Below, in pieces: positions 5,076 to 53,094 of a stretch of 56,067 nt of DNA. A program made the translations under genes and the position numbers. Source of the DNA: a bacterium (GTDB lineage Bacteria > Hydrothermota > Hydrothermia > UBA1063); NCBI GenBank assembly GCA_030019025.1, contig JASEFR010000010.1:1-56067 (forward strand), in the 5' to 3' direction. Below the pieces are notes generated by a model that did not search any database, had not been told where the DNA came from, and was given only the letters and a program-made list of their open reading frames with translations. Numbering within the stretch: the stretch's first letter is position 1; the number at the start of each line of letters is the position of its first letter.

Positions 5076-5080
5076 TTCAA

Positions 5081-5106
5081 CCTCCCTTTTTAGACCGGAA
5101 GGGAGG
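5081..5106 (-). promoter_or_regulatory. Hairpin that sequesters the maturase Shine-Dalgarno, located between pepA and the radical SAM gene
   Basis: The mRNA-sense sequence is CCTCCCTTCCGGTCTAAAAAGGGAGG. CCTCCCTT pairs with AAGGGAGG over 8 bp with a 10-nt loop. The 3-prime arm is the SD, 5 nt before ATG 5075. Confidence 0.5.
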
Positions 5107-5121
5107 TGGGTTTTTTAATTT

Positions 5122-5226
5122 TTACACCTGGTCCTTCCTACAAATTGTTAAAAAGCAACCACAAATAGGTGGCAATATAGATGGTAAATTCACTTTCTGG
5201 CTATTATTAATATTAATTGCCTTCAT
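5122..5226 (-). CDS. Precursor-like peptide paralog A (34 aa): MKAININNSQKVNLPSILPPICGCFLTICRKDQV
   Basis: Hand translation. SD GGAGGTG lies 6 nt upstream of ATG 5226..5224; stop TAA at 5124..5122. It sits 46 nt upstream of the maturase start. Confidence 0.75.
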   Translation of the reverse strand: MKAININNSQKVNLPSILPPICGCFLTICRKDQV

Positions 5227-5236
5227 TCTTCACCTC

Positions 5237-5350
5237 CTACTTTTGTTCGCTGTCCCTCGGTGCCCTCTGATCACACCTTGTCAGAAAGCATCCACATAGA
5301 AAATCTATAATGCCTTTTTGTGGTGCATTCTCTCTGTTTATGTATCTCAT
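5237..5350 (-). CDS. Precursor-like peptide paralog B (37 aa): MRYINRENAPQKGIIDFLCGCFLTRCDQRAPRDSEQK
   Basis: This is the internal Met35 of the 71-aa track ORF 5237..5452. It is preceded by GGAAGGAGG-N5-ATG, whereas the upstream ATG at 5452 has no SD. The TAG stop overlaps the SD of pepA. Confidence 0.75.
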   Translation of the reverse strand: MRYINRENAPQKGIIDFLCGCFLTRCDQRAPRDSEQK

Positions 5351-5376
5351 TTTTACCTCCTTCCGTTTTTGGCTAC

Positions 5377-5388
5377 CCTCCCTTCCGG
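5377..5388 (-). repeat. 12-nt element CCGGAAGGGAGG (mRNA sense), perfectly complementary to 5095..5106
   Basis: The plus strand reads CCTCCCTTCCGG at 5377-5388 and CCGGAAGGGAGG at 5095-5106. On the transcript the two elements flank pepB-pepA. Confidence 0.6.
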
Positions 5389-5417
5389 CATACTTTTTAA
5401 TAAGCAAAAAGTATGCC
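5387..5417 (-). promoter_or_regulatory. 12-bp perfect hairpin in the 5-prime leader of pepB
   Basis: GGCATACTTTTT (5387-5398) and AAAAAGTATGCC (5406-5417) are exact reverse complements with a 7-nt loop. No U-tract follows on the sense strand. Confidence 0.4.
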
Positions 5418-5440
5418 AAAAGAGAGTCAGGATGTAAGTT

Positions 5441-5446
5441 ATTGTA
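5441..5446 (-). promoter_or_regulatory. Candidate -10 box TACAAT for the precursor/maturase operon
   Basis: The minus strand reads GAGTTACAATAAC. Only a weak -35 (TTCCAT-like) is present. The large palindrome lies immediately upstream. Confidence 0.3.
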
Positions 5447-5473
5447 ACTCATAAAAATGAGAAAATGGAAATA

Positions 5474-5509
5474 TTCCTAAAGTGCGAAAAACTTTTCGCA
5501 CTTTAGGAA
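5474..5509. promoter_or_regulatory. 36-bp perfect palindrome (17-bp arms, 2-nt centre); candidate operator or second terminator
   Basis: TTCCTAAAGTGCGAAAA-AC-TTTTCGCACTTTAGGAA, checked base by base. Confidence 0.5.
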
Positions 5510-5584
5510 AGTAGATTTAAGATCCTGAAACTCTCAAACTTAGAGTGTGAAAAAAGATTCAGTAAAAACCTCGAACTTTCACAT

Positions 5585-5615
5585 AAAAAAAATGGGGCGA
5601 CCGTATGGTCACCCC
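5585..5615 (-). terminator. Rho-independent terminator of the peroxiredoxin gene
   Basis: The minus-sense sequence is GGGGUGACC-AUAC-GGUCGCCCC followed by A and eight U residues. It lies 25 nt after the stop at 5640. Confidence 0.75.
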
Positions 5616-5639
5616 ATCAGAAAGGCAACCCTCAAAATC

Positions 5640-13473: not shown

Positions 13474-14433
13474 ATGATAAAAGCACTGTTTTCACAATTA
13501 TACGGTTTGGCTTTAAATTTGTGGTATCTGTATGATGAAATCCTCAGAACAAAAGACGTTTTACCTGCCCATGTAATATCCATAGGGAATATAACCACAG
13601 GAGGTACTGGAAAAACCCCACTTACAATTTTTCTTGCACAGAAACTTTCCACTGATAGAAAAGTTGCAATTCTTACGAGGGGCTACAGGAGAAAAGGTAA
13701 GGGAATATACATACTTAAAGAAAACACGCCACTAATGAGGTGGGAAGAAGTTGGAGACGAACCTTACCTAATGTGGAAAAAACTTCGGGGAGGTGTTCCC
13801 ATCCTTATTGGTAAAAATAGATATGAAACAGGGCAAATTGCAATACGCCAATTTAAATGCGAAGTTTTACTGATGGATGATGGTTTCCAGTACTTACCTC
13901 TCAAAAGGGATATAGATATCGTTTGCATAAATCAAGGTACCGTTATTCATGGTGATTACCTCTTACCCAGGGGCACTTTAAGAGAAAAATTTTCAGCCTT
14001 AAAAAGAGCTCACATATTAGTCCTCAACATAAAAGGCGATACCCTTGACCACCGTGCAGTAGAGTTTCTCGAAACCTACAAAAAACCAATCTTCGTAATG
14101 AAATATGAACCTGTAAGGTTTTACAACTTTGAAGGCCAACAAATATCGCTTAATTCTCTCAAGGGCTTTGACGTGGCAGCGCTTTCTGGTATTGCAGACC
14201 CTAAAAGTTTTATTGACCTACTAACTAAAATCGGAATCACACCGAAGGAGATTATTGCCATCAGAGACCACAACATTTATCCCTTGCCGAAGCTGAGAGC
14301 TCTTCTCAAAAAATTTGACTATGTAGTTACTACGGAAAAAGACCTCATTAAATATCCCTCTTTCAAAAATCTTCTCGCCCTTGAGCTCCAGGTAAAAATT
14401 GAAAGGGAAGATGAATTTTTAAAGCTTTTATAA
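13474..14433 (+). CDS. lpxK: Tetraacyldisaccharide 4-prime-kinase
   Basis: 319 aa with the P-loop GNITTGGTGKTP. Confidence 0.9.
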   Translation: MIKALFSQLYGLALNLWYLYDEILRTKDVLPAHVISIGNITTGGTGKTPLTIFLAQKLSTDRKVAILTRGYRRKGKGIYILKENTPLMRWEEVGDEPYLMWKKLRGGVPILIGKNRYETGQIAIRQFKCEVLLMDDGFQYLPLKRDIDIVCINQGTVIHGDYLLPRGTLREKFSALKRAHILVLNIKGDTLDHRAVEFLETYKKPIFVMKYEPVRFYNFEGQQISLNSLKGFDVAALSGIADPKSFIDLLTKIGITPKEIIAIRDHNIYPLPKLRALLKKFDYVVTTEKDLIKYPSFKNLLALELQVKIEREDEFLKLL

Positions 14434-34788: not shown

Positions 34789-35568
34789 ATGCGTCTTGGA
34801 ATAATATTTAATGTAGATTTTTATGAGCTTATTAAAAAATTGAAAATCCACGAGAGGAGGCCTAAAATTATTACATTCAAATTAAAGGAGAGTATAAATG
34901 GGGTGCGGTTGTGTAGGCAACTTCTTATTCTGGGAAAACAATATAGTGAGGTTCGCCTCGCCATCAAAAAAGACAAAGAAGCTCTAAAACGATTAGATCC
35001 AGCTTTTGAAACCCCTTACCAGTACCTGTTTCACGCAGGTTTTCAGTCCCTTAAACTTTACAGGTATTCTCATATGCTTTATGAAACGGGGTTCAAGCTT
35101 ATTGCCTTCGCTATATATCACCTTGCCAGAATATTATACGGCGTTGACATACATCCAGCTGCTGTTATAAAACCAGGGGTTGTGATAGACCACGGGGTTG
35201 GTTTGGTCATTGGCTCAACGGCAGTAGTAGGAAGTGGCACTGTACTATATCACGGCGTTACCCTCGGTTCAAAAAATCTCTCAACGGGCAAGCGACATCC
35301 TACCCTCGGCAGAAACGTCTTTGTGGGAGCCGGTGCGAAAATACTCGGGCCTGTTAAAATAGGCGATGGAGCCAAAATTGGGGCAAATAGTGTGGTCCTT
35401 AACGATGTTCCAGAAAATGCTACGGCAGTAGGGATTCCAGCTAAGATCATTATAAAAACTACTCCCAATTCAAAAAATAGTGACGACTTAGATCACCTTT
35501 GTGAAGACGAGGAAAGCCACTGTTTATGTCTAAACACAAGTCATTGGATAGCACAAGAGGTGAAATAA
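34789..35568 (+). CDS. cysE: Serine O-acetyltransferase (start uncertain)
   Basis: Contains DPA...GVDIHPAAVI and hexapeptide repeats. About 50 N-terminal residues of the ORF have no counterpart in short CysE forms, so the true start may be GTG or TTG near 34900. Confidence 0.8.
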   Translation: MRLGIIFNVDFYELIKKLKIHERRPKIITFKLKESINGVRLCRQLLILGKQYSEVRLAIKKDKEALKRLDPAFETPYQYLFHAGFQSLKLYRYSHMLYETGFKLIAFAIYHLARILYGVDIHPAAVIKPGVVIDHGVGLVIGSTAVVGSGTVLYHGVTLGSKNLSTGKRHPTLGRNVFVGAGAKILGPVKIGDGAKIGANSVVLNDVPENATAVGIPAKIIIKTTPNSKNSDDLDHLCEDEESHCLCLNTSHWIAQEVK

Positions 35569-36471
35569 ATGGCGAAAAAGCAAAGCGATCTTCTGTCAAC
35601 CTTGTCTTTCATAAAAATCGGTGATACACCATTAGTTTATCTGCAAAAATACGAAATATTCGTAAAACTTGAAAGATCCAATCCTACGGGTAGTATAAAA
35701 GATAGAGCCGCTTACTTCATGCTATTTCAAGCAATCAAAGAAGGCAAAATAACGCGACATACCACTATCGTGGAACCTACCAGCGGAAATACGGGAATAT
35801 CCTTAGCCTGGCTGGCAACTCAATTGGGTCTAAAGGCAATCTTAACAATGCCAAAAGCAGCATCTATCGAAAGAATCAAGCTCTTACAAGGTCTGGGAGC
35901 AAGAGTAATATTAACTGATACCATTGAAGAAGCCGTAGAAAAAGCCAAAGCTATTTCCGAAAATAAGGATTTTTTTATGCCAAACCAGTTTGAAAACGAA
36001 AGGAATGTACTTGCTCACTTTTCTACAACAGGGCCTGAAATCCTAAAACAAATGGACTATCAACTTGATGCTTTTGTAGCTGGTGTAGGATCCGGAGGAA
36101 CAATAACGGGTGTTGGGAAGTTCCTAAAAGAATTTAACCCGACCATAAAAATCATAGCGGTTGAGCCAAAACAATCCGCAATTTTAAGTGGTGGTTCCCC
36201 TGGTAAACACAAAATTCAGGGAATAGGTGCGGGCTTTAAGCCTAAAATACTTGATTTAAAGCTGATTGATGAAATAATCCAAATCGATGACAGCGAAGCA
36301 CTGGGTTGGACGGTCAAATTGTGGAAAGAAGGAATATTTGCAGGAATATCCTCCTCAGCCAATCTCTTGGCATCCTTGAAGATCAAAGAGAAGTACAAAT
36401 TTAAAAGAATTGTTACCGTTTTTCCAGATGATGGGTATAAATACCTTTCGCAGATTCTGGGCAATTCTTAA
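35569..36471 (+). CDS. cysK: Cysteine synthase A (O-acetylserine sulfhydrylase)
   Basis: 300 aa with the PLP lysine motif SNPTGSIKDRAA and GSGGTITG. Confidence 0.9.
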   Translation: MAKKQSDLLSTLSFIKIGDTPLVYLQKYEIFVKLERSNPTGSIKDRAAYFMLFQAIKEGKITRHTTIVEPTSGNTGISLAWLATQLGLKAILTMPKAASIERIKLLQGLGARVILTDTIEEAVEKAKAISENKDFFMPNQFENERNVLAHFSTTGPEILKQMDYQLDAFVAGVGSGGTITGVGKFLKEFNPTIKIIAVEPKQSAILSGGSPGKHKIQGIGAGFKPKILDLKLIDEIIQIDDSEALGWTVKLWKEGIFAGISSSANLLASLKIKEKYKFKRIVTVFPDDGYKYLSQILGNS

Positions 36472-36530
36472 CGAGTCCATGCACTAACTTACATTTTAAA
36501 GAAGGTAAAACACAGCTTTATACTGCCTTC

Positions 36531-36559
36531 TTGACTTTCCATGCGCGGCTTAATATAAT
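36531..36559 (+). promoter_or_regulatory. Near-consensus sigma70 promoter
   Basis: TTGACT, 17-nt spacer, TATAAT. The -10 box ends 7 nt before ATG 36567. Confidence 0.6.
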
Positions 36560-36566
36560 ATCATCA

Positions 36567-36665
36567 ATGGTAATGTGTGGTTTGTTATTTGTGTTTACAT
36601 CGAATATTCTACTTATTAATTATTTCGCACTTAATTTCAACAATAATAACGTCCCCCGCTCATAA
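36567..36665 (+). CDS. Asn-rich leader peptide (32 aa): MVMCGLLFVFTSNILLINYFALNFNNNNVPRS
   Basis: Hand translation. 7 of 32 codons are Asn, and 5 of the 6 codons at 36633..36650 are Asn. The stop TAA (36663-36665) lies in the loop of the following hairpin. No SD is present, so initiation would be leaderless. Confidence 0.5.
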   Translation: MVMCGLLFVFTSNILLINYFALNFNNNNVPRS

Positions 36666-36673
36666 GGGGGACG
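36650..36673 (+). promoter_or_regulatory. GC-rich hairpin overlapping the end of the leader ORF (attenuator element candidate)
   Basis: CGTCCCCC (36650-36657) pairs with GGGGGACG (36666-36673) around an 8-nt loop, GCTCATAA. A second C-run (CCCCGC, 36693-36698) and a weak AGAAC/GTTCT hairpin followed by TTTGATT lie downstream, before the SD at 36719. Confidence 0.5.
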
Positions 36674-36730
36674 GCATACTAAATCAATAGAACCCCGCTT
36701 GTTCTTTGATTCCCAAAAGGAGGTAAAACT

Positions 36731-37654
36731 ATGTTAGAGTTTGAAATCTTTGAACATTTAAAAGACGAAAAAGTAAAAATAGCAGTAAGGGTTCAATCCC
36801 TTATAATCAAAATTTTGAGAGATTTTCTCCACGAAAAGGGATTTTTTGAAATTCTCCCCGTCGTGATTTCCAGAGTTACCGATCCCCTATCAGAGGTTAA
36901 AAAATCCATATCCTTTGAAATCTATGGTCAGCAATATCAGCTCACCAAAAGCATGATCTTTCACAAAAGGATGGCTCTATTCAATCTCGACAGAATATTC
37001 ACCCTTTCCCCGAACATAAGAATTGAAGAGGAAAAGAAATCCTCAACACGAAGACATCTTGTGGAATTCGTCCAGCTTGACGTTGAAATAAAAAATGCAA
37101 AAATGCAAGAGGTGATGAATCTCATCGAAGAAATGCTAACTTACTTATTCAAAAGGTTAAAAGATGAGGCTAAAGAAGAACTGGCTTACTTTGGTAGAAC
37201 TCTTCCCGAAATCAGTCCCCCTTTTCCTGTTTATGAATTTGAAGACGTTTACAGCCTATATGGAGAAGATTACGAAAAGGTTATCTCTGAAAACTCATCA
37301 GTTCCGGTTTGGATAGTCCATTTTCCTGAAGGGAGAAGAGAATTTTATTATAAGACAATCCCATCAACGGGGAAAATGGCCGACTTCGACCTCCTGTACC
37401 CTTATGGATATGGAGAGGCAATTTCTGGGGGCGAAAGGGAAGACGACAGAACAAATGTTATAAACAAGCTTAGAAATAAAGATGCGGAATTCCTAAAAAC
37501 ATTCTATTTGAAGTTATTGGAGGAAGGAGTTCCCCCATCTGCAGGTTTTGGGATTGGAATTGAGAGGCTGACGATGTTTGTCTGTGGACTTAGCCATATC
37601 GTGTATACCAAATTTTTCCCAAAACTGCCATTAAAAGAAGTTCAGTTCATTTAA
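36731..37654 (+). CDS. Asparagine synthetase A, archaeal-type (AsnRS catalytic-core paralog lacking the anticodon-binding domain)
   Basis: 307 aa with class II aaRS motifs: motif 2 reads RRHLVEFVQLDVE and motif 3 reads GFGIGIERLTMFVCG. There is no N-terminal OB fold. GGAGG is followed after 7 nt by the ATG. Confidence 0.75.
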   Translation: MLEFEIFEHLKDEKVKIAVRVQSLIIKILRDFLHEKGFFEILPVVISRVTDPLSEVKKSISFEIYGQQYQLTKSMIFHKRMALFNLDRIFTLSPNIRIEEEKKSSTRRHLVEFVQLDVEIKNAKMQEVMNLIEEMLTYLFKRLKDEAKEELAYFGRTLPEISPPFPVYEFEDVYSLYGEDYEKVISENSSVPVWIVHFPEGRREFYYKTIPSTGKMADFDLLYPYGYGEAISGGEREDDRTNVINKLRNKDAEFLKTFYLKLLEEGVPPSAGFGIGIERLTMFVCGLSHIVYTKFFPKLPLKEVQFI

Positions 37655-37668
37655 GAGGAGGTGCCAAC

Positions 37669-38833
37669 TTTAAAGGATTTGACTTTAAAAATAAGGAAGA
37701 AGTGATCAATTTTCTCAATGATCATCCCGAGGTCAAGTTCCGTAGATTTCTTTTTGTAAATGTTCTCCGCAGGCCTCTAAACTTTACTAAACCCTCAAAA
37801 GAAATTGAAGATACCTTTAAAAAGGGAAAAGGCTTTGATGGAAGCTCGGTTGAAGGCTTTGCAAGAATTCGTGAATTTGACTCAGTTTTTGTACCTGATC
37901 CCAGAAGCTTTAGGGTATTACCTTGGAAGCATGAACTTGGCAGTGAGACCTGGTGTAAATCTTTGATGTTTGGTAACATTTACGATGCCAATGGGGACGG
38001 GTTTAACGGTGATTCAAGGTTTATATTAATCAAAGCTCTTGAAGATAGGCAAGGAACTTAAATGCATTGGTCCAGAGATTGAATTTTTTTATTCGAAAAC
38101 GATAGAAGCACTAAATCATCAGGTACAGGAGGCTATTTTTACAGCGGGAGCTCGTGTTGGTTCAGAAAAGTTGCCGTGATATGTTTGTAAAATGGGTATT
38201 TCTGTTGGTTGTGATCATCACGAAGTAGCTCCGAGCCAGCACGAAATAGATTTAAAATACGGTCAGCTAAAGAAATCGTAGATAGCATTACGCTTGCAAA
38301 ATATGCTTTTAAAAAAACACCCGAGAGACTAAACCTTCATTTCTTCTTTATGCCAAACATATAAAGGATCTCCCTGGCAATGAAGTGAATCTCCATATTT
38401 CTCTCTTCAGAAATGGCGAAAACTTATTTCACTCCCCCGCAGGTTTTCCGATTTCGGAAAACGCTTTGCAATGGCCTTATCTAATATGGAGGGAAATTCA
38501 ACGGTTTTTAAATCAATGGGTTAATTCTTACAAAAGACTAAGACCAGGTTATGAGGCCCCGTATTATTCAGCCTGGAGACAAAGAACCGTTCCTTCTGCG
38601 TGAGTGTACTGAACTTCAGAAAAGACTCAAAAAACTCGTACAGAATTGAGCTTAAAAGCTCTTGAACTTTTTAGAACCAGCAGGTCTTGCGGAGAAGTAC
38701 TTGGTTAACACGTTCATGAAAAACTCATTGAAAACAAAGAGAAAGAATGGAAAAACTACGTAATGGAAGTCGGAACAAGGTATGAAAACGAGGTAGCGAG
38801 TTTGAACTGAAAAAGTATCTCCCCATTTTGTAA
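37669..38833 (+). pseudogene. glnA: Glutamine synthetase type I pseudogene (multiple frameshifts, stops and deletions)
   Basis: GS-specific blocks are scattered over all three frames. They include GFDGSSVEGFARIRE.D..PDP..F.VLPW, GPEIEFF, HHEVAPSQHEIDLKY, FMPK...G...LHISL, NSYKRLRPGYEAP and a C-terminal ELKKYLPIL. Stops occur at 38059 and elsewhere. The total span is about 390 codons, against roughly 440-470 for an intact GSI. Confidence 0.85.
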
Positions 38834-38892
38834 ACTAAGCCCTTTGAACTGACATTTTTGAATTACATAATATTTGTGATAAAATAATATTC

Positions 38893-38989
38893 GGCACTGG
38901 GGGAGCTGGGTAAAAGCCTGGCTGAGAGGCCTGCCTAAAAGGCGACCCCTCGAACCTGATCCGGGTAATGCCGGCGAAGGGAAAGTGCC
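38893..38989 (+). promoter_or_regulatory. TPP (THI-box) riboswitch
   Basis: The P1 stem pairs GGCACT with AGTGCC. Conserved elements CTGGGGGAGC, GCTGAGA and ACCC..GAACCTGATCCGGGTAATGCCGGCGAAGGGA are present, directly upstream of thiC. Confidence 0.9.
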
Positions 38990-39041
38990 AGTAGCTTTCC
39001 CATACGCTCAGCCCTCCCCCTTAAAGCCAGAGGAGGAAAAG

Positions 39042-45953: not shown

Positions 45954-48347
45954 CTATTCTATGGTCCCCAGTATTGTGAATTCTACTCTTCTATTCATTT
46001 GATAATCTTCCTCGCTCCTTTCGGGATATACCACCAGTCTTCTTTCACCATATCCTTTCGCTATAAGGCGATCAGGCGATATATTGTGAACCTTAATGAG
46101 GTAGTCTCTCACCGCATTGGCTCTTGCCTGAGACAACTTCAAATTGTATGCATCAGAACCCCTTGAATCTGTATGTCCTCCAATCTCCACCTTAACATTG
46201 GGATACTCCTTAAGGAACAACGCAATCGAGTCAAGTACTGGATAGGACTCAGGCCTTACGTCAGCTTTGTTAAACTCAAAGTAAATATTTCTAAAGGTAA
46301 ATACCATCTTCTTCTTGAGAAGGGCTATATCCTTTGTAGTCTTCTTTCCACCCTCAATAACAAAGGTAGTTTCAAAGGGGATATACTTTTCTGCCTGAGC
46401 TTTTACCTTGTATAAACCTTCTTTCAATTTAAGAGAGAATTCTCCGTTTTCCGATGTATTTATTGTCTCAATCAGATTGCCAACAGAATCGTAAATTTCA
46501 ACCGTTGCAACAAGGGGTGAAAGGGATTTCGCATCAACAACCTTTCCAATCAATTCTCCTTCTCTTGGTACAATGGTATAATTCTTAGTAAGTGTCTCTA
46601 ATGGTTTTATGTCAAAGGTTTCGTAAATGGGTTTGTAATTTGCCTCTTCAATCTTAATAGAATACACACCCTCAAGGTACTTTTTGGAGGCCTTACCAGT
46701 CGAATCTGTCAGAAGGGTATCAGCCTTTCCTGACTCGTCCATAACGATCACAGGAACATAAGCCTTTGGTAGTCCTGTTACAAAATCGGTTACCATAACA
46801 ACCAGTTCTCCTACCAATGGCTTCAAATAGAAGGTGGTTTTAACCTTCTCTTTCTTATCCACAAAGATTAAGGTATCCTTCGATGTATAATTCTCTGCAT
46901 ACACACTTATTTTGGTCCAGCCCCATGGTATTTTAACTCTAAACTTCCCATCCCCTTCAGTGGTTACTCTTCTTTCTTTACCATCGTATCCTTCAATCGT
47001 AACTCTTGCAATCAATGGACTCCCTGTCGTTGAATCAATGATTGTTCCCTCAATCCTTTGAATTATTGGGCTCCTAAATCCTGCCGTTACTGTTGCCGAA
47101 AGACCTTCTGCAGAGGTTATAAGACCACTCTGGTTGGAAATACCCGCATTTATGAACATGAAGGGAAGCTGAAAGCCCGTTCCCAAAGAGAAGCTGGGTT
47201 TCTGGCCACCCCCGAAAGTCGCACCGAGCAAAATTGGAAGGAATGTATTTAGTTCCATTGCAAGGGAAAGTCTCGGCGTAGTACTGGAAAGAGCAGAGTT
47301 TTTGAAGCCCTGTTCAAGATCAAAATAAAACTTCAGAGGCAACCTGTAGAAATCATACATTCCGGAAATCCTCAGTATTACAGGAAGTTTAGTATTGAAA
47401 CTTCCTGCGTTCCTTTCAATTGTGTCGGTAAAAATCTCCCTTAGAGAATCTGCTTTATAAAGGTCGTAAAGATTAAACCTGGATGAAGTAATAGCAGCAA
47501 CCCCTGTGAATGTTGAATCAGAATTCCATTTAATATTTGAAAAAAGGTTTTCAATTGCAAGGCCTAATGTGAATTTGGGTGTTAATTCAACGGAAGAACC
47601 AAGGGAGAGAGAGAAGCCATAACCACTGGGCTTATATATCTCCCCGACACTAAAATTCCTCATGTCATAAACATAATCCGGTGTTGAATACATAAATTCA
47701 ACGGTATCTTTTACCTCAATAGCAGTATCTGCAACTTCCACTTTTCCAGTTCTTGATGTAATCTTTGCATATGCCTGTCCAAGGATGTAAGAACCTGAAA
47801 AACCAAAATGAACCTTTCTATTGGATATCCTTTCACTAAATCCAAAGCCAAGGGTGTGCTGAAGATATGATATTACCTCTGCCTGAAGGCTTGTAAAATC
47901 ATAAGTTTTGTTAACCTGCACTCCGTAAAGGCCGATGCGGAATAAATCTCTTGGGATATTAACTTTAGCCGCTTCCACCGTCCTGCTGGCAACACCAATA
48001 GGGCCTATTGACAGCCCAATGGGCATTGCAGAAAGATACTGACTAAACTCAAAATTATCACCTATTTTCTCTAAAACATCTTGCTTAAATTCATCGGTTA
48101 TCGTATCCATGGGTGCAAGCCTGTTATAAAAATCGAGGGAAATTAGATCGTTGTTAAATCCCGCGTGCAAATAAGGAAGCATAAGCACAAAAGATGGATT
48201 GTATTTTCCCGCTAAGTTTTGCGGGGAATGGAAAACGGAATATGGGCCAAAATGTCCGGTAGTTCCGTACCACTCTCCATTAAAGGAGATAATAGGATAT
48301 GCCCAGGTTAAATTGACTAAAAAAAGCATTATAAAAAGCCTCTTCAT
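45954..48347 (-). CDS. OmpA-family outer-membrane protein with N-terminal beta-barrel and carboxypeptidase-regulatory-like (Ig-fold) repeats
   Basis: 797 aa with a signal peptide. The C-terminal OmpA domain reads FEFNKADVRPES...GHTDSRGSDAYNLKLSQARANAV. Confidence 0.8.
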   Translation of the reverse strand: MKRLFIMLFLVNLTWAYPIISFNGEWYGTTGHFGPYSVFHSPQNLAGKYNPSFVLMLPYLHAGFNNDLISLDFYNRLAPMDTITDEFKQDVLEKIGDNFEFSQYLSAMPIGLSIGPIGVASRTVEAAKVNIPRDLFRIGLYGVQVNKTYDFTSLQAEVISYLQHTLGFGFSERISNRKVHFGFSGSYILGQAYAKITSRTGKVEVADTAIEVKDTVEFMYSTPDYVYDMRNFSVGEIYKPSGYGFSLSLGSSVELTPKFTLGLAIENLFSNIKWNSDSTFTGVAAITSSRFNLYDLYKADSLREIFTDTIERNAGSFNTKLPVILRISGMYDFYRLPLKFYFDLEQGFKNSALSSTTPRLSLAMELNTFLPILLGATFGGGQKPSFSLGTGFQLPFMFINAGISNQSGLITSAEGLSATVTAGFRSPIIQRIEGTIIDSTTGSPLIARVTIEGYDGKERRVTTEGDGKFRVKIPWGWTKISVYAENYTSKDTLIFVDKKEKVKTTFYLKPLVGELVVMVTDFVTGLPKAYVPVIVMDESGKADTLLTDSTGKASKKYLEGVYSIKIEEANYKPIYETFDIKPLETLTKNYTIVPREGELIGKVVDAKSLSPLVATVEIYDSVGNLIETINTSENGEFSLKLKEGLYKVKAQAEKYIPFETTFVIEGGKKTTKDIALLKKKMVFTFRNIYFEFNKADVRPESYPVLDSIALFLKEYPNVKVEIGGHTDSRGSDAYNLKLSQARANAVRDYLIKVHNISPDRLIAKGYGERRLVVYPERSEEDYQMNRRVEFTILGTIE

Positions 48348-49401: not shown

Positions 49402-50433
49402 TTACAATAATTTTTCAAGCCCTCTTTCCTTTAAAATTGCCCTTAACTTTTTAATATTTTGAGCCTCACTCATTGGAATTACAAGCACTACATCATTGGT
49501 TGAGACCACTATGACATCCGAAAGCCCATAGGCTGCAATTAACGGTCCCCTTTGAATAAAAATAGAATTTTTACATTCCGAGACCACTGCTTCACCTGAG
49601 ATAATATTCCCCTCTTCATCAGTATCTAAAACTTTAAAAAGAGATGGAAATGCCCCCAAGTCCTCCCAGAAAAATTCCCCTTCCACAACTGCTATGTTGT
49701 CAGCCTTTTCCATTATTGCATAATCCACTGAAATTTCAGGCGCTTTTTCATAAACTTTATCAAGTTCCTCAGGGATCTTGGATTCTTTCAAAACTTTGTA
49801 AAAATCTGGCATAAATTTCCTTACCGCTTCATCAAAGACATCCGTTTTCCATACAAACATACCTGCATTCCAGTAAAACTTCCCTGACGAGACATATTTC
49901 TCAGCCGTTTCTCTTTCAGGCTTCTCGTGAAACTTAATAGCCTTATATGACTTTTCGCCCAGTTTTTCACCCCTCTCAATATAACCGTAACCTGTTTCAG
50001 GTCTTGCAGGCTTAATTCCAATGGTAACGATGTAACCTTGCTGGGCCAGTTTTACTGCTTCATCAATAGCTTTCAGGAAAACATCATCTTCTTTTATGAA
50101 ATGGTCCGAAGGAAAGACGCCTACTATCACCTCTCCATATCTTCTTCTTACATACTCGTTGGCAACAGCACAGGCAGGCGCGGTGTTTTTACCGACCGGC
50201 TCAAGTATCTTAAAGACACCGGGAAACATAGAATCCAGCTTTTGCCTGAATTTGGCGTTAGAAACCAGGAGTATTTCCCCGCACTCGGGAACTCTTTTCA
50301 ACCTTCTTGCGGTTTGCTCAATAAGGGTACCTTCACCCGCGATTTGAAGAAACTGTTTGGGATTTTCATTCCTCGACAATGGCCAGAACCGCTCCCCCTT
50401 CCCCCCACACAAAACCACTGCTACAAATTTCAT
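49402..50433 (-). CDS. Mannose-1-phosphate guanylyltransferase (nucleotidyltransferase domain only)
   Basis: 343 aa containing VLCGGKGERFWPLSR. TATAAT on the minus strand lies 6 nt before the ATG. Confidence 0.85.
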   Translation of the reverse strand: MKFVAVVLCGGKGERFWPLSRNENPKQFLQIAGEGTLIEQTARRLKRVPECGEILLVSNAKFRQKLDSMFPGVFKILEPVGKNTAPACAVANEYVRRRYGEVIVGVFPSDHFIKEDDVFLKAIDEAVKLAQQGYIVTIGIKPARPETGYGYIERGEKLGEKSYKAIKFHEKPERETAEKYVSSGKFYWNAGMFVWKTDVFDEAVRKFMPDFYKVLKESKIPEELDKVYEKAPEISVDYAIMEKADNIAVVEGEFFWEDLGAFPSLFKVLDTDEEGNIISGEAVVSECKNSIFIQRGPLIAAYGLSDVIVVSTNDVVLVIPMSEAQNIKKLRAILKERGLEKLL

Positions 50434-50470: not shown

Positions 50471-51670
50471 ATGGCTATAAAAATTACTATAAGTGTCTTA
50501 AGTAGCTACATTTTAGGCTCAATTTTACCTGCCTATTTCCTTGGCAAACTCCTTAAAGGAATTGATATCCGTGAGGTGGGAGATAAGAACGCAGGGACAA
50601 TAAATGCCTATAAAACACTCGGTCCTATTCCTGCACTCTTTACAGCCATTTTCGATCTTTCAAAGGGAATGTTGTCCGCATGGATCGCCCACCTGGTGGG
50701 AATAGAGTATCCCCTAAATATTCTCATCTCCTTCGCTGCTGTTCTCGGGCATGTGTTTCCCTTCTACCTTAAATTTAGAGGGGGGCAGGGGGAAGCAACC
50801 GCAACTGGCATAATTTTGTATTTTCTTCTTAGAACTCTATTTACAAAGCCCGATTTTCTTACTGCATTTCTTATTCTGGTTTTTTATTCACTAATTTTAT
50901 TATACATCATCGGGCCTTCAAGGATACTGGGATTATACATCCTGCCGGCAGTCTTTCTATTAGTAGCAGTCCATTTATCGACTCTTGAATGGATAATAAT
51001 GTTGGTATTCGTTGCCTACACTTTCTCCGTTAGTCTCAGCAACCGGATCAAAAGCGGATACAAACTAAGTGAACAAACAAGAAAGACAATCAAATGGTCA
51101 AGATTTGTGGCAAGACCTTTCGCTATTTTGTATATAATCATCTACTTCCAGACTTCAAAGGGCTTTATTCTAAAACTAACCGGCACTGTAGCCCTCGCTT
51201 TCCTAATCTTTGATCTTGTGAGACTTTCTAAAGCAGGCATCAATCGGGCTATAATGAAAACCCTAAGTTTTGCCTTTAAAAGTAAAGAAGAAAAAACCTT
51301 CTCCAGCATGACCCACTTCACTGTAGCATCCTTTTTAAGCTACTTGCTGTTTCCGGGAAAAATTGCCTCCTGCTCAATCCTCTACCCAGTCTTTGGTGAT
51401 ATGTTTGCCAAACTCATGGGGCTTGAATACGGACGAAGGCGATTCTTTGAAAAAACCCTGGAAGGTTTCTTAGCCTATACAACCTTTGGGATAATCGCAG
51501 GATATATATACTCAAAACTGGCAAACTACCCATTTCCTCTTACCATCATAGGTGCTTTAGTAGGAGCTATATCTGAGATATTGCCATGGAAATTAGACGA
51601 CAACCTGAGTGGTTCACTTTTCTCAGGACTTGCAATGTTCTATGTTGGTAAATTATTAAACTGGGTGTAA
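50471..51670 (+). CDS. Fusion protein: PlsY acyl-phosphate:glycerol-3-phosphate acyltransferase plus a C-terminal CTP-dependent polyprenol/DAG-kinase-like (CdsA/dolichol kinase superfamily) domain
   Basis: 399 aa. The N-terminal part of about 200 aa carries PlsY motifs GSILPAYFLGK..GIDIREVGDKNAGTINA and GHVFPFYLKFRGGQG. The C-terminal part of about 190 aa carries VFGDMFAKLMGLEYGRRRFFEKTLEG. Confidence 0.75.
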   Translation: MAIKITISVLSSYILGSILPAYFLGKLLKGIDIREVGDKNAGTINAYKTLGPIPALFTAIFDLSKGMLSAWIAHLVGIEYPLNILISFAAVLGHVFPFYLKFRGGQGEATATGIILYFLLRTLFTKPDFLTAFLILVFYSLILLYIIGPSRILGLYILPAVFLLVAVHLSTLEWIIMLVFVAYTFSVSLSNRIKSGYKLSEQTRKTIKWSRFVARPFAILYIIIYFQTSKGFILKLTGTVALAFLIFDLVRLSKAGINRAIMKTLSFAFKSKEEKTFSSMTHFTVASFLSYLLFPGKIASCSILYPVFGDMFAKLMGLEYGRRRFFEKTLEGFLAYTTFGIIAGYIYSKLANYPFPLTIIGALVGAISEILPWKLDDNLSGSLFSGLAMFYVGKLLNWV

Positions 51671-51690: not shown

Positions 51691-53094
51691 ATGTCCAAAA
51701 AAATTTACCAAATAGTTTTTGCAGTTGCTTCTTTTCTTTTCTTCCAAAAAGGTATCAGTGCCCAGGAATTTCCTATCGCAGTGGGTAGTGATACGACTTT
51801 TTCTGGAGGAGCGGTTTACGGTGATAACAACGGCCTGGTAGCTATTTACGGTGATTCTGAAAGCCCGTACAGTATCAATGCACAGCTGATTGCCTATCCT
51901 GGAGATCTAATAGGCCCAAGAATTTCCTTAGGTGATACAGGAGTTTTCCCGGGCGCGATACCAATCTTTGATGGGACCAATTACTTCCTGATGTGGTGCG
52001 ACTTCTATGGAACTCTTAAAGGAGAATTCATTGATACGAACGGAAATCTGGTTGGTTCTCCAATCACCATCGCCACCGACTTAGACCCAAACGGCCGAAA
52101 TAGTATTGCTATGGGCGATACGGTTTTTCTGGCAGTTTTCGTTAAAAATGACGGCTATCTCTATGGACAAATGTTAAGCAGTAGTGGTGATCTGATTGGG
52201 TCCCAAATACAAATTAGCAATAACTATGCACGTGAAAATGCCACTGCATTTGATGGCAACAATTTTCTCGTAGTCTGGGTTGATGACAATAATGACAAAG
52301 ACATCTATGGGCAGTTTGTAAGTAAAACAGGCTCACTTGTGGGGGGCAATTTTGTCATTGACAACGGCCCATACTACAGCGATAACCCTGTCTCCCTTGC
52401 CTTTGATGGTACAAGGTACCTGCTGGCATTTCATGAAACTCTTAGTGACGTGGGTTTCCCAAAATGGACTTTGCTTGGCAGATTCATAACCACTTCTGGA
52501 ACCCTCGAGGATACATTTACTATTTGTGATACAACTAAAATGCCGTTTCTACCCTATGTTGCCTTTGATGGTACTAATTATTTAATAACCTGGACACAAT
52601 TTTCCGATTCAAATATGGTAGGAAGATTCTATAACACCTTCGGTGAACCTATTGACACACCTTTTGTTATCTTTGCTCCTTTAAACAACAAAATACCTGT
52701 GGGAGGAGTCGGCTTTGGAGGCGGGAATTATCTTGTGATAGCTACTCGTGTAAATTCCGACCTCACCGACGGTGACGTCTATGGCAGATTCATCAGCCCT
52801 GTAAGTATAAGAGACGAAAATAGTTTAAACATAAAACCGAAACTTTTCCCGAATTATCCAAATCCTTTCAGCAGATATACTAATATTCAATACGAGTTAC
52901 CAAAATCAACTTACGTTACCCTACGAATCTATAATATGCTCGGCCAGGAAGTTGCTACTTTAGTCAGAGGAGTATTACCTGCCGGAAAGCATACCATACG
53001 CTGGAATTCTGCTGATTTACCCGAGGGTATATACTTCTGCAATTTAGAGACCACAAGCTCTGTTGAGACGAAAAAGCTAATTCTGCTAAAGTGA
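51691..53094 (+). CDS. Secreted repeat protein (seven modules of about 50 aa, propeller-like) with a T9SS C-terminal sorting domain
   Basis: 467 aa with a signal peptide. The recurring module is FDG(T/N)NYL..W......(I/V)YG(Q/R)F(I/V)...G.L(I/V)G. The C-terminus NYPNPFSRYTNIQYEL...LRIYNMLGQEV...GIYFCNL matches the Por secretion tail. Confidence 0.8.
   Translation: MSKKIYQIVFAVASFLFFQKGISAQEFPIAVGSDTTFSGGAVYGDNNGLVAIYGDSESPYSINAQLIAYPGDLIGPRISLGDTGVFPGAIPIFDGTNYFLMWCDFYGTLKGEFIDTNGNLVGSPITIATDLDPNGRNSIAMGDTVFLAVFVKNDGYLYGQMLSSSGDLIGSQIQISNNYARENATAFDGNNFLVVWVDDNNDKDIYGQFVSKTGSLVGGNFVIDNGPYYSDNPVSLAFDGTRYLLAFHETLSDVGFPKWTLLGRFITTSGTLEDTFTICDTTKMPFLPYVAFDGTNYLITWTQFSDSNMVGRFYNTFGEPIDTPFVIFAPLNNKIPVGGVGFGGGNYLVIATRVNSDLTDGDVYGRFISPVSIRDENSLNIKPKLFPNYPNPFSRYTNIQYELPKSTYVTLRIYNMLGQEVATLVRGVLPAGKHTIRWNSADLPEGIYFCNLETTSSVETKKLILLK

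Follow-up and report, generated by a model that had tools for sequence, protein, structure and literature searches.

Leader-peptide attenuation is textbook knowledge for Trp, His, Leu, Thr, Phe and Ile/Val, and Cys was added recently. To our knowledge, no such leader-peptide sensor has been known hitherto for asparagine. The Asn-specific T-box leaders of Firmicutes recognise the tRNA by direct binding, independently of translation. In the mycobacterial polyCys attenuators, which are leaderless small ORFs (sORFs) of the Ms5788A type, the proposal is that a stalled ribosome keeps the mRNA from folding into a structure in which the ribosome-binding site (RBS) of the downstream biosynthetic gene is sequestered (bioRxiv 10.1101/834739).

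The window analysed here is the whole stretch of 56,067 nucleotides, and within it we consider positions 36531-36730. Quite likely, this interval acts in cis to sense the charging of Asn-tRNA(Asn) and thereby controls the asparagine synthetase A gene that follows it. As far as sequence comparison can tell, it is very probably a previously undescribed Asn-supply switch, acting via ribosome stalling, which is present here and in many uncultured bacteria. The initial annotation had proposed ribosome-mediated attenuation by a leaderless Asn-rich leader, and this is supported by conservation across phyla and by covariation. The features are listed below.

36531..36559, + strand: sigma-70-type promoter; TTGACT 36531-36536, 17-nt spacer, TATAAT 36554-36559
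36567..36665, + strand: leader ORF of 32 codons plus TAA, MVMCGLLFVFTSNILLINYFALNFNNNNVPRS followed by the stop; promoter-proximal ATG, frame kept in relatives
36633..36650, + strand: putative regulatory codon tract AAT TTC AAC AAT AAT AAC; 5/6 codons Asn
36650..36673, + strand: hairpin P1; 5' arm CGTCCCCC 36650-36657, loop GCTCATAA 36658-36665, 3' arm GGGGGACG 36666-36673
36674..36716, + strand: G-poor, C/U/A-rich spacer; C-boxes CCCC 36693-36696 and TTCCC 36710-36714, local hairpin 36682-36711
36717..36733, + strand: Shine-Dalgarno sequence (SD) AAGGAGGT 36717-36724 and asnA-like ATG 36731-36733
36731..37654, + strand: archaeal-type (AsnRS-like) asparagine synthetase A, 307 aa, catalytic core only, from Pfam and PDB matches

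The locus resembles the mycobacterial polyCys attenuators in its apparently leaderless first-cistron sORF, in the end-product amino-acid codons at the 3' end and in having no intrinsic terminator, and in L096, L097, L117 and L054 (leaders of relatives carry L numbers) an anti-SD lies in exactly the mycobacterial position. Unlike in mycobacteria, the codons are for Asn and not Cys, the phyla are unrelated, and the Asn tract takes no part in SD pairing; between the two stands the strictly conserved C5/G5 hairpin, whose loop contains the stop, and the lineage of the window has no anti-SD under the footprint of the stalled ribosome. With trpL, hisL, leuL, thrL, pheL and ilvL the element shares a short ORF upstream of a biosynthetic gene, clustered cognate codons before or in segment 1 of a 1:2 hairpin, and a stop codon placed so that the terminating ribosome would also cover segment 2. 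It differs from them in its Asn specificity, in being apparently leaderless and not SD-led, and in having neither a terminator of GC hairpin and U-tract nor an Rfam match. The proposed logic is that of ermC and cat translational attenuation, where the stalled ribosome masks segment 1, frees segment 2 and alters SD pairing, but the trigger would be hungry codons instead of an antibiotic and an arrest peptide, and the 2:3 and 3:4 pairings have no statistical support here. Asn T-boxes would have the same input, tRNA-Asn charging, and likewise control Asn-related genes; a T-box was rejected at this locus, as no Rfam T-box match was obtained even at E<=10.

Promoter, leader ORF and the downstream gene

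The promoter TTGACT-N17-TATAAT and the ATG at 36567, 7 nt past the end of the -10 box, had been pointed out in the initial annotation and were found again at these coordinates. The promoter matches 11 of 12 consensus positions and is the best promoter-like site of the promoter scan in 35500-38500. Both boxes are kept in L004 and L066/L068, and most relatives have a 10-12/12 promoter, with a -35/-10 spacing of 16-18 nt, located 6-10 nt before an in-frame leader ATG. In about 9 of the 43 listed window genes, the start codon is preceded at 6-8 nt by a -10-like box, 5 of these boxes being exact TATAAT. Judged by such sites, the capacity for leaderless starts is present in the source genome, where these starts appear to be common. 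The promoter geometry fits a leader ORF that is leaderless and begins at the promoter-proximal ATG. A 44-aa version of the ORF started by TTG, which is given in the ORF list, is considered an artefact and overlaps the -35 box.

The leader peptide ends in NFNNNNVPRS. The short ORF with five Asn codons out of six in its last third, AAT TTC AAC AAT AAT AAC at 36633-36650, had been described before and is confirmed. It had also been suggested that the run may be a chance product of AT-rich DNA; the four Asn codons in a row at 36639-36650 are the sole run of four AAY triplets on both strands of the window, and the layout recurs in more than 20 independent lineages, which speaks against chance. In all 24 leaders the Asn frame stays free of stops over 27-70 codons, with medians of about 7 and 3 for the other two frames. 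In L004 and L005/L068 the 32-codon ORF is kept without indels though the sequence of its body has diverged. The third positions of the Asn run across the leaders are T (58) or C (23), and never A or G. Coding constraint on the leader ORF is shown by this comparison of sequences, and its translation is predicted from the openness of the frame and from the third-position pattern.

The relatives have 3-7 Asn among the last 12 codons, the number of Asn codons overall ranging from 2 to 8. Outside NNNVP, with the stop 1-2 codons later, the peptide is unconserved. We also considered that the C-terminal N-N-N-V-P-x-x-stop is an arrest peptide which, within the exit tunnel or on termination, senses a small molecule (e.g. 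free Asn), like TnaC or SpeFL, and not tRNA charging. This would account for the fact that NNNVP and the nearby stop are kept at the peptide level across phyla, and for the GC-rich relatives, whose conserved leader C-termini (..LANQVARG-stop, ..TNQDA-stop) carry one or two Asn only. However, V-P is dictated by the GUCCCCC arm of P1, which itself covaries as RNA, and a variable number of Asn codons in an otherwise unconserved peptide is typical of hungry-codon sensors. Moreover, stalling by a ligand at high Asn would regulate a biosynthetic gene in the wrong direction, except with an inverted output logic. We therefore regard an arrest peptide as very improbable.

The gene behind the leader is preceded by a strong SD that is kept in all relatives, and the SD (36717-36724) followed by an AsnRS-like asparagine synthetase gene (ATG 36731) had been read correctly in the initial annotation. 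The protein matches Pfam tRNA-synt_2 (PF00152) at 4e-49 over residues 9-298 of 307; since the only other Pfam match is a weak one to the class II core PF01409, it appears to have no anticodon-binding domain. PDB matches extend over residues ~15 to ~300, namely 1nnh (2e-53) and 3p8t, 'Archaeal asparagine synthetase A' (7e-53, residues 16-300), and homologues are named asparagine synthetase A in their source records. By these matches, the presumably regulated gene is an archaeal-type asparagine synthetase A (AS-AR). Genomes with AsnA make Asn-tRNA via AsnRS and not GatCAB (PMC2330236), and therefore tRNA charging would report free Asn.

Hairpin P1 and the distribution of the layout

P1 is an 8-bp stem of the C5/G5 type with a folding energy of -18.6 kcal/mol, and the TAA stop (36663-36665) sits within its loop. 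The pattern occurs once in the window against 0.01 expected, and perfect GC-rich stems of 7 bp or more number only three in the 56 kb, P1 being one of them. The 8-bp GC hairpin with the stop in its loop was thus correctly recognised in the initial annotation; its placing after the Asn run needs correction, because P1 starts at C36650, the third base of the last Asn codon, and the two overlap by one base. Across 21 leaders, the closing pair formed by this third base and the base after GGGGGAC is never mismatched; it is C-G in 9, U-A in 9 and U.G in 3 of them. In the same number of leaders (21/21), the end of the stop codon falls between -3 and +1 nt relative to the 3' arm. These pairs were counted from per-sequence folding, as the 3' arm was misaligned in the MAFFT core alignment. 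RNAalifold within families consistently predicted P1 alone, and no compensatory change was found elsewhere. In this comparison of folded sequences P1 is shown to covary as an RNA pairing.

Other roles of P1 were tried and rejected. It is not a repeat or mobile element, being single-copy in the window. As an intrinsic terminator it would need a U-tract, which follows P1 only in the L009 family, and a ribosome at the stop would melt it. A mimic of the tRNA-Asn anticodon loop for the AsnRS-like enzyme was dismissed; the loops share only the stop codon, and the enzyme is without an anticodon-binding domain. The G-run as a cryptic SD of a downstream mini-ORF was dropped as well, since a start codon 5-10 nt downstream does not occur consistently from lineage to lineage.

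At least 24 distinct leaders have the same layout, each upstream of an AsnA-like gene, in WOR-3, Hydrothermia/Hydrothermota, Aminicenantes, Acidobacteria and one Eubacteriales MAG. The common layout consists of the promoter-proximal ATG, the open frame, the Asn run, the abutting hairpin, the stop at the 3' edge of the loop, the G-poor spacer and the strong SD, and the two closest lineages (AsnA identity 78-80%) carry it. Orthologues with an Asn-clustered upstream ORF and a hairpin were to be looked for according to the initial annotation, which had named the loss of the ORF or the Asn run in related genomes as counter-evidence. The opposite was found: both are kept across several bacterial phyla, with covariation at the codon level and in base pairs. 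A metagenome pattern scan (at least 3 Asn codons and a stop in the loop) gave 22 loci, 19 of them upstream of AsnA-like ORFs, and L117, L118 and L121 are further lineages with the layout. L056/L061 and L088 match the scan pattern without an in-frame ATG and without asnA. Used as a regulon search, the scan turned up the complete signature in front of asnA-like genes and nowhere else. The layout is missing from the archaeal homologues; of 27 of their loci with an equally high AT content, 0 show 4 or more Asn within 6 upstream codons.

Rfam 15 gave no match at E<=10 in 35500-38500 and none at the gathering threshold on the leader (whole window and 9 relatives), so that the leader families known to Rfam were rejected. 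No description of an Asn leader peptide was found in the literature searched, in agreement with the earlier impression that a leader of this kind is apparently undescribed for such a gene.

The same data bear on the reading in which the ORF is untranslated. P1 and the A-rich sequence 5' of it would then serve as an intrinsic terminator, on the minus strand or in both directions, or as an operator bound by a protein, and the Asn codons would be no more than the complement of a U-tract. On the minus strand the hairpin with GTTATTATT scores as terminator-like, the scan makes the same call for CGTCCCCCTTATGAGCGGGGGACG+TTATTATTGT, and many unrelated matches of the metagenome pattern are such terminators. 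However, there is no convergent minus-strand gene in the window or in the relatives. Neither the strict triplet periodicity with pyrimidine-only third positions, nor the frame open to a promoter-proximal ATG in 24/24, nor the stop kept in the loop, nor the same-strand association exclusively with asnA-like genes agrees with it, and we consider it extremely improbable.

Spacer, terminators and translation initiation

The spacer is 43-75 nt long (14 nt in L035), and pooled over 20 leaders it contains 6.9% G and 21% C (C/G about 3.1), while the window overall has about 19% G. The C-run CCCCGC (36693-36698) and the AGAAC/GTTCT stem (36689-36705) followed by TTTGATT, which the initial annotation had listed, are present; the roles given to them, an alternative pairing partner and a terminator, are unconserved even in the closest relatives. 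The local hairpin 36682-36711 (AATCAAtAGAAC/GTTCTTTGATT) is not conserved either, being missing in L004 and an A-U-only stem in L068. For the freed 3' arm of P1, the best duplex is ACCCCGCTTGT (-10.5 kcal/mol), which is not better than shuffles. The complementarity of the G-run or the SD to the spacer was compared with composition-preserving shuffles, and the mean z of about -0.45 is not significant. An ermC-like 2:3/3:4 model based on duplex energies gained no support from this z value against shuffles, and its candidate pairings are not conserved.

From the terminator scan, no terminator-like site was found on the + strand in 36560-36730. A U-tract follows P1 in the L009 family only, and most other lineages have no hairpin with a U-tract before the SD. 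These results have to be weighed for transcription attenuation of the trp type, where P1 would be the 1:2 hairpin, GGGGG:CCCCGC (36693-36698) the antiterminator, and AGAAC/GTTCT with TTGATT a weak terminator. The geometry of codons, 1:2 hairpin and stop does fit trpL logic, and the freed-arm duplex with ACCCCGCTTGT at -10.5 kcal/mol overlaps the loop and the upper stem of the 36682-36711 hairpin. Exactly such logic, with a real terminator, exists in the homologue L032 from a gammaproteobacterial MAG. Here an AsnA-like gene lies behind an Asn-rich leader of the textbook type, MRYRLTSQNNNQNNHFQRLAIF (NNNQNN), CCAGC/GCTGG repeats make up a canonical set of 1:2, 2:3 and 3:4 pairings, and ATCCAGCTAGTAGCTGGATTTTTT is the terminator, consisting of a GC hairpin and U6. 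Because L032 is a textbook example, the AsnA-like gene family appears to be one that is regulated by Asn-codon leaders. L032 and the window share the gene family and the Asn-rich leader, whereas the C5/G5 hairpin and the stop in its loop are absent from L032. In the window, however, the + strand scan is empty, and the stem contains 2 GC pairs and is followed by a broken U-tract; L004, which is equally close, has no such hairpin, in L068 it is A-U-only, and most other lineages have no hairpin with a U-tract. Such a stem is also implausible at a high growth temperature. Trp-type attenuation is thus quite improbable for the window, and the four-segment, terminator-type scheme of the initial annotation is not supported as written, no + strand terminator being found.

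The organisms appear to be thermophilic: the sample 'GBSSSed77C' (read as 77 C sediment) and hydrothermal samples are the sources of close relatives. In such heat P1 alone would be stable, and the A/U-rich helices of 4-7 bp would not.

We evaluated translation initiation by RBS-opening calculations at 37 and 65 C, where the effects were modest and lineage-dependent, with none for the window. Folding with and without the ribosome footprint, which the initial annotation had suggested, did not unmask the SD of the window: under equilibrium folding, masking the footprint of the stalled ribosome gave an RBS ddG of -0.4 kcal/mol, and the RBS was not opened. The RBS opening cost of the window asnA is 5.2 kcal/mol, which is mid-rank among 43 window genes. 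In 10 of the 21 leaders, masking reduces the cost by more than 1 kcal/mol, with a drop of 3-4 kcal/mol in L094, L096, L110 and L117.

A CCUCC-type anti-SD lies directly 5' of the Asn run in L096, L097, L117, L118, L054, L094 and L010. The footprint:SD duplex reaches -10 to -11 kcal/mol in L096, L097, L054 and L094, where 3-4% of genomic control windows are as good; the values for L117 (-10.8 kcal/mol) and L118 (-10.3 kcal/mol) are without a genomic control. The best footprint:SD duplex of the window has -4.4 kcal/mol, a value that 58% of genomic windows reach. A Canestrari-type anti-SD under the footprint was rejected as a general rule, its enrichment being confined to some families: 6/21 leaders lie under the 10th percentile of the genomic windows, and the leader of the window is not among them. 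For L035, a short WOR-3 version, the prediction is that the freed G-run binds a CCCCC located 3' of the SD and 5' of the ATG, which would close the RBS rather than open it.

The initial annotation had left undecided whether the output is transcriptional or translational, and rightly so, as neither a + strand terminator nor SD unmasking was found here. A further reading keeps the same sensor and gives it a Rho-dependent output: the G-poor, C-rich and unstructured spacer would be a rut site, free when P1 is closed and leading to premature termination; on stalling, the freed G-run would sequester it in part, or it would be bypassed, which gives readthrough. This reading is favoured by the low G (6.9%) and high C (21%) of the spacer in 20 leaders, against about 19% G in the window, a composition that is kept also in leaders with no obvious anti-SD. 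It would also fit the absence of an intrinsic terminator and the failure of the translational model on the window's own sequence. On the other hand, 43-75 nt (14 nt in L035) is short for a rut site, and a ribosome stalled upstream would leave the spacer uncovered, so that the weakly supported pairing of G-run and C-box would still be needed. Rho as the main output is unlikely in our view; as a secondary effect, polarity brought about by Rho on the G-poor spacer is plausible.

Proposed mechanism and significance

In the proposed mechanism, transcription would start at or next to the ATG at 36567, and a 70S ribosome would translate the 32-codon leader once the 5' end emerges. The last Asn codons (36639-36650) abut the 5' arm of P1 and overlap it by one base. 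When Asn-tRNA is plentiful, the ribosome would reach the TAA in the loop, cover both arms and be released, whereupon P1 would close and expression would be low. When it is scarce, the ribosome would stall with an Asn codon in the A site, holding the 5' arm and about 15 nt upstream, which would leave the G-run of the 3' arm single-stranded and correspond to the state of high expression. This sensor half, in which Asn-tRNA-dependent stalling opens the hairpin, is well supported, and we infer the stalling itself.

For the output half, given that the element is a sensor, our best guess is a tentative one: the leader would act on the initiation of asnA translation and not through an intrinsic terminator. 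With no ribosome on the leader, pyrimidine boxes would pair with the SD, the only other G-rich element. Relief might come from an anti-SD that is held under the stalled ribosome, a route that looks clear in L096, L097, L054, L094 and L117, or from the freed GGGGG arm, which might titrate the C-box. An output step via SD pairing in the window itself is not supported by the equilibrium folding model. We can also imagine a terminator-free, phylum-spanning 'Asn leader' class, with the present locus as its founding example, in which the leaderless peptide goes with a sequence-constrained C5/G5 hairpin that acts as an anti-SD/SD mimic pair with the stop in its loop, and stalling frees the G-run to out-compete the real SD for the pyrimidine boxes. 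This is rather unlikely as it stands; if true, one stable helix would suffice for the mimic-pair design, which might have arisen as an adaptation to translation systems that are leaderless and thermophilic.

The architecture departs from the classical one, being apparently leaderless, with a single invariant C5/G5 hairpin, a stop in its loop and no terminator. The signature may serve for annotating Asn leaders and small ORFs in metagenomes, and the element could become a compact, portable Asn-responsive part for synthetic biology if its output can be defined. For the lineages that carry the leader, the element would indicate that leaderless translation works in them. It would put Asn on the list of amino acids sensed by leader peptides, in phyla of which little is known and which are for the most part uncultured and in part thermophilic (WOR-3, Hydrothermae, Aminicenantes, Acidobacteria).

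Anatomy of the Asn-codon leader

A gap of 259 nt separates a cysK-like gene from the gene of a 307-aa product at 36731-37654 (asnA). The features of this region are as follows.

35569-36471: cysK-like gene, 5' neighbour of the 259-nt gap
36531-36559: promoter, TTGACT (36531-36536), 17 nt, TATAAT (36554-36559); 11/12 match
36567: leader ATG, 7 nt past the -10 box
36567 to TAA 36663-36665: leader ORF of 32 codons, MVMCGLLFVFTSNILLINYFALNFNNNNVPRS
36633-36650: Asn tract, AAT TTC AAC AAT AAT AAC
36650-36657 / 36666-36673: hairpin P1, CGTCCCCC/GGGGGACG, 8-nt loop with the stop codon

The promoter, ATG, 32-codon ORF, Asn tract and stop-in-loop hairpin listed in the initial annotation are all present, and its observation is confirmed. 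The hairpin said to follow the Asn run is there as well, with its position refined: the stem begins at C36650, the wobble position of the last Asn codon. The promoter ranks first among the promoter-like sites in the scanned 3 kb. The P1 pattern occurs once in the window versus 0.01 expected; besides P1, the 56 kb have only two perfect GC-rich stems of 7 bp or longer. When both strands were scanned, the run of four AAY triplets was the sole one in the window. The reading of this layout as ribosome-mediated attenuation by Asn codons has gained support from its recurrence before AsnA-like genes, from coding constraint and from covariation in P1.

About nine of the 43 listed window genes carry a -10-like box 6-8 nt before the start codon, five of them an exact TATAAT, of which there are only 57 in the window on both strands. 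Leaderless initiation is thus credible in this organism on sequence grounds. Among others, the genes at 13474, 24789, 44680 and 50471 (+) and at 49402-50433 (-) have no SD; their TATAAT ends 6-8 nt short of the ATG and is preceded at 16-18 nt by a -35 box. Since many SD-less genes have such a start-proximal TATAAT, leaderless mRNAs appear common here. The divergent genes 49402-50433 (-) and 50471-51670 (+) lie 37 nt apart and appear to use this stretch in common, with two -10 boxes back to back in it. Elsewhere, the 564-nt intergenic region 5076-5639 contains a perfect 16-bp palindrome, TTCCTAAAGTGCGAAA-aact-TTTCGCACTTTAGGAA (5474-5509), a candidate operator or bidirectional terminator.

Distribution and coding constraint

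Three other contigs (L001-L003) have an identical AsnA protein sequence and an identical leader. In the nearest lineages, L004 and L005, AsnA is 78% and 80% identical to that of the window; the record name of L004, 'GBSSSed77C', is read as Great Boiling Spring 77 C sediment. Both keep the promoter, the ATG 7-8 nt past the -10 box and the SD. Their ORF has 32 codons and zero indels, with a body diverged beyond recognition, and the C-terminal NF[AN]NNNVP, the P1 hairpin and the TAA in its loop are retained. The conservation of ORF and Asn run in relatives, which the initial annotation had proposed as a check, extends to further bacterial lineages.

A scan of genome bins by AsnA alignment, limited to a single genome for each species, gave 47 loci. 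The motif, 59-170 nt before the AsnA gene, was found in bins with the labels Hydrothermia, WOR-3, Hydrothermota, Aminicenantes, Acidobacteria and Eubacteriales, and also in two further bacteria; it was found at none of the archaeal loci. A pattern scan of metagenomes returned 64 loci, 22 of which have at least three Asn codons and the stop in the loop. An AsnA-like ORF follows in 19 of these 22 (17 by blastp, L066 by gene-start sequence; L081 repeats the L068 leader at the end of a contig). The other three, L088 and the identical pair L056/L061, lack an in-frame ATG and come after another gene's stop. Direct look-up contributed L117, L118 and L121 as three further lineages. In L121 the gene after asnA (1944-2321) carries the domains of reverse gyrase (zf_Rg, DEAD, Toprim, Topoisom_bac), which marks this lineage as a hyperthermophile and matters for the question of which RNA helices are stable. 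Two window proteins, one with the T9SS C-terminal sorting domain Por_Secre_tail (51691-53094) and one an OmpA/CarboxypepD_reg outer-membrane protein (45954-48347), suggest affiliation with the FCB superphylum, which fits the WOR-3/Hydrothermia labels of the nearest bins.

Four independent signatures in the compared leaders say that the Asn frame is under coding constraint. It is stop-free for 27-70 codons in 24/24 leaders, while the two other frames, in DNA this rich in AT, stay open for medians of about 7 and 3 codons. An in-frame ATG is present in every leader, and in most a 10-12/12 promoter places its -10 box 6-10 nt before it. In the Asn runs, positions one and two are invariant AA, and the third position is T in 58 cases, C in 23 and A or G, which would give Lys, in 0. 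ORF lengths are constant within families (32; 40-42; 37-38 codons) while the peptide body varies. As a control, 4 Asn in 6 codons was reached at 0 of 27 archaeal homologue loci, whose upstream GC is equal or lower; all AT-rich bacterial loci with a complete upstream region have at least 3 consecutive Asn codons, or 4 Asn in 6.

Hairpin P1 and candidate outputs

P1 is predicted in every leader (6-12 bp, -11 to -23 kcal/mol), with an almost invariant C4-5/G4-5 core. Its closing pair joins the wobble base of the last Asn codon to the base following GGGGGAC; 9 leaders have C-G at this place, 9 have U-A and 3 have U.G, and there is no mismatch. Across the leaders this is a clean compensatory pattern, which also links the codon tract to the stem. 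The stop codon, be it TAA, TAG or TGA, ends -3 to +1 nt from the P1 3' arm in 21/21 leaders. If any of the last Asn codons stands in its A site, a ribosome would hold the 5' arm in the mRNA channel and leave the G-run free; at the stop codon it would cover both arms, and after release P1 could close. We consider this sensor mechanism well supported and very probable.

If the sensor is accepted, a classical terminator is a most improbable output. No + strand terminator was found between the leader and asnA in the window, and no U-tract follows P1 in the leaders, the L009 family excepted. L004 lacks the AGAAC/GTTCT hairpin once suggested as a weak terminator, and L068 has an A-U stem in its place. 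The spacer between P1 and the SD is strikingly G-poor (G 6.9%, C 21% over 20 leaders; G is about 19% in the window overall), and therefore the P1 3' arm and the SD are the only G-rich elements near pyrimidine boxes. Such a C-rich, G-poor spacer also speaks for a Rho-dependent component, a serious rival that we hold, given the sensor, to be possible and rather unlikely.

For translational control, two arrangements were evaluated. In an ermC-like one, the freed G-run would compete with the SD for a C-box. The best 2:3 and 3:4 duplexes share one C-box in 11/21 leaders, and their energies are no better than those of shuffled spacers (mean z about -0.45). In the other, an anti-SD would lie under the stalled ribosome, as in the leaderless polyCys sORFs of mycobacteria (10.1101/834739). 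CCUCC-type motifs occur directly 5' of the Asn run in L096, L097, L054, L094, L117, L118 and L010, with predicted anti-SD duplexes of -9 to -11 kcal/mol; for the first four, only 3-4% of genomic control windows are as good. No such anti-SD was seen in the window lineage (-4.4 kcal/mol, equalled by 58% of genomic windows).

Folding with and without a ribosome footprint, a comparison that the initial annotation had advised for the window's leader, gave an effect on the ribosome-binding site (RBS) in part of the leaders. By partition function at 37 C, masking the stalled footprint lowers the RBS opening cost by a mean of 1.0 kcal/mol, by more than 1 kcal/mol in 10/21 leaders and by 3-4 kcal/mol in L094, L096, L110 and L117. 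In the window the change is -0.4 kcal/mol, and the asnA RBS opening cost is mid-rank among 43 window genes. In L035, a short WOR-3 form, the freed G-run is predicted to close the RBS. The modelled effector is probably translational in several lineages and may be lineage-variable. Conditional on the sensor, we regard translational control as a plausible output, just short of calling it probable.

Related leaders and asparagine supply

The window leader shares the logic of leader-peptide attenuation. Classical attenuators are defined by a terminator, which it lacks. Among described systems it comes closest to the mycobacterial leaderless polycysteine sORF attenuator (10.1101/834739), whose codon tract pairs with the SD; that of the window leader is not predicted to do so. 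The leader belongs to none of the curated leader RNA families, and no Asn-specific leader peptide was found in the full-text literature searched, which covers subscription journals in part.

A textbook attenuator was found before an AsnA-like gene in L032, a gammaproteobacterial MAG (about 1370-1500). Its leader peptide, MRYRLTSQNNNQNNHFQRLAIF, contains NNNQNN, its CCAGC/GCTGG repeats make 1:2, 2:3 and 3:4 hairpins, and its terminator, ATCCAGCTAGTAGCTGGATTTTTT, is a GC hairpin with U6. Asn-codon leaders therefore arose at least twice before the AsnA-like enzyme. Within 300 nt upstream of GC-rich AsnA-like genes of Bipolaricaulota/Thermotogota (L018, L022, L024, L027, L028, L051), there are leader ORFs that start from an SD, have conserved C-termini (..SLANR..LF.L.NQ[DV]A.. 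stop) and contain only one or two Asn codons; hairpins and a terminator-like CAGGG/CCCTG+TTTTCG element follow them. They are possibly a different kind of sensor, e.g. an arrest peptide.

The product of 36731-37654 has the class II Asp/Asn/Lys-tRNA synthetase core (Pfam). Pfam adds just one weak class II core hit, so the protein is taken to have no anticodon-binding domain. Residues ~15 to ~300 match structures of archaeal asparagine synthetase A (1nnh, 2e-53; 3p8t, 7e-53), and its homologues are called asparagine synthetase A in their sources.

Directly 3' of asnA, a glutamine synthetase gene (37702-38984) is split into at least three frames, and the surviving ORF is only a 119-aa N-terminal piece. 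The same truncation occurs in other samples of the species (L001, L002). In L004 the gene is intact (451 aa) and follows asnA at a distance of 12 nt. This points to an asnA-glnA operon, putatively decayed in the window. A TPP riboswitch (72.8 bits, 38889-39000) lies upstream of thiC and overlaps its listed GTG at 38985, so the real start is probably further downstream. The synteny from asnA to this riboswitch also exists in the Hydrothermia bin L007.

AsnA-encoding genomes form Asn-tRNA via AsnRS and not GatCAB (PMC2330236). Hence the charging state of tRNA-Asn should reflect the pool of free Asn, and such a readout is what a hungry-codon sensor requires.
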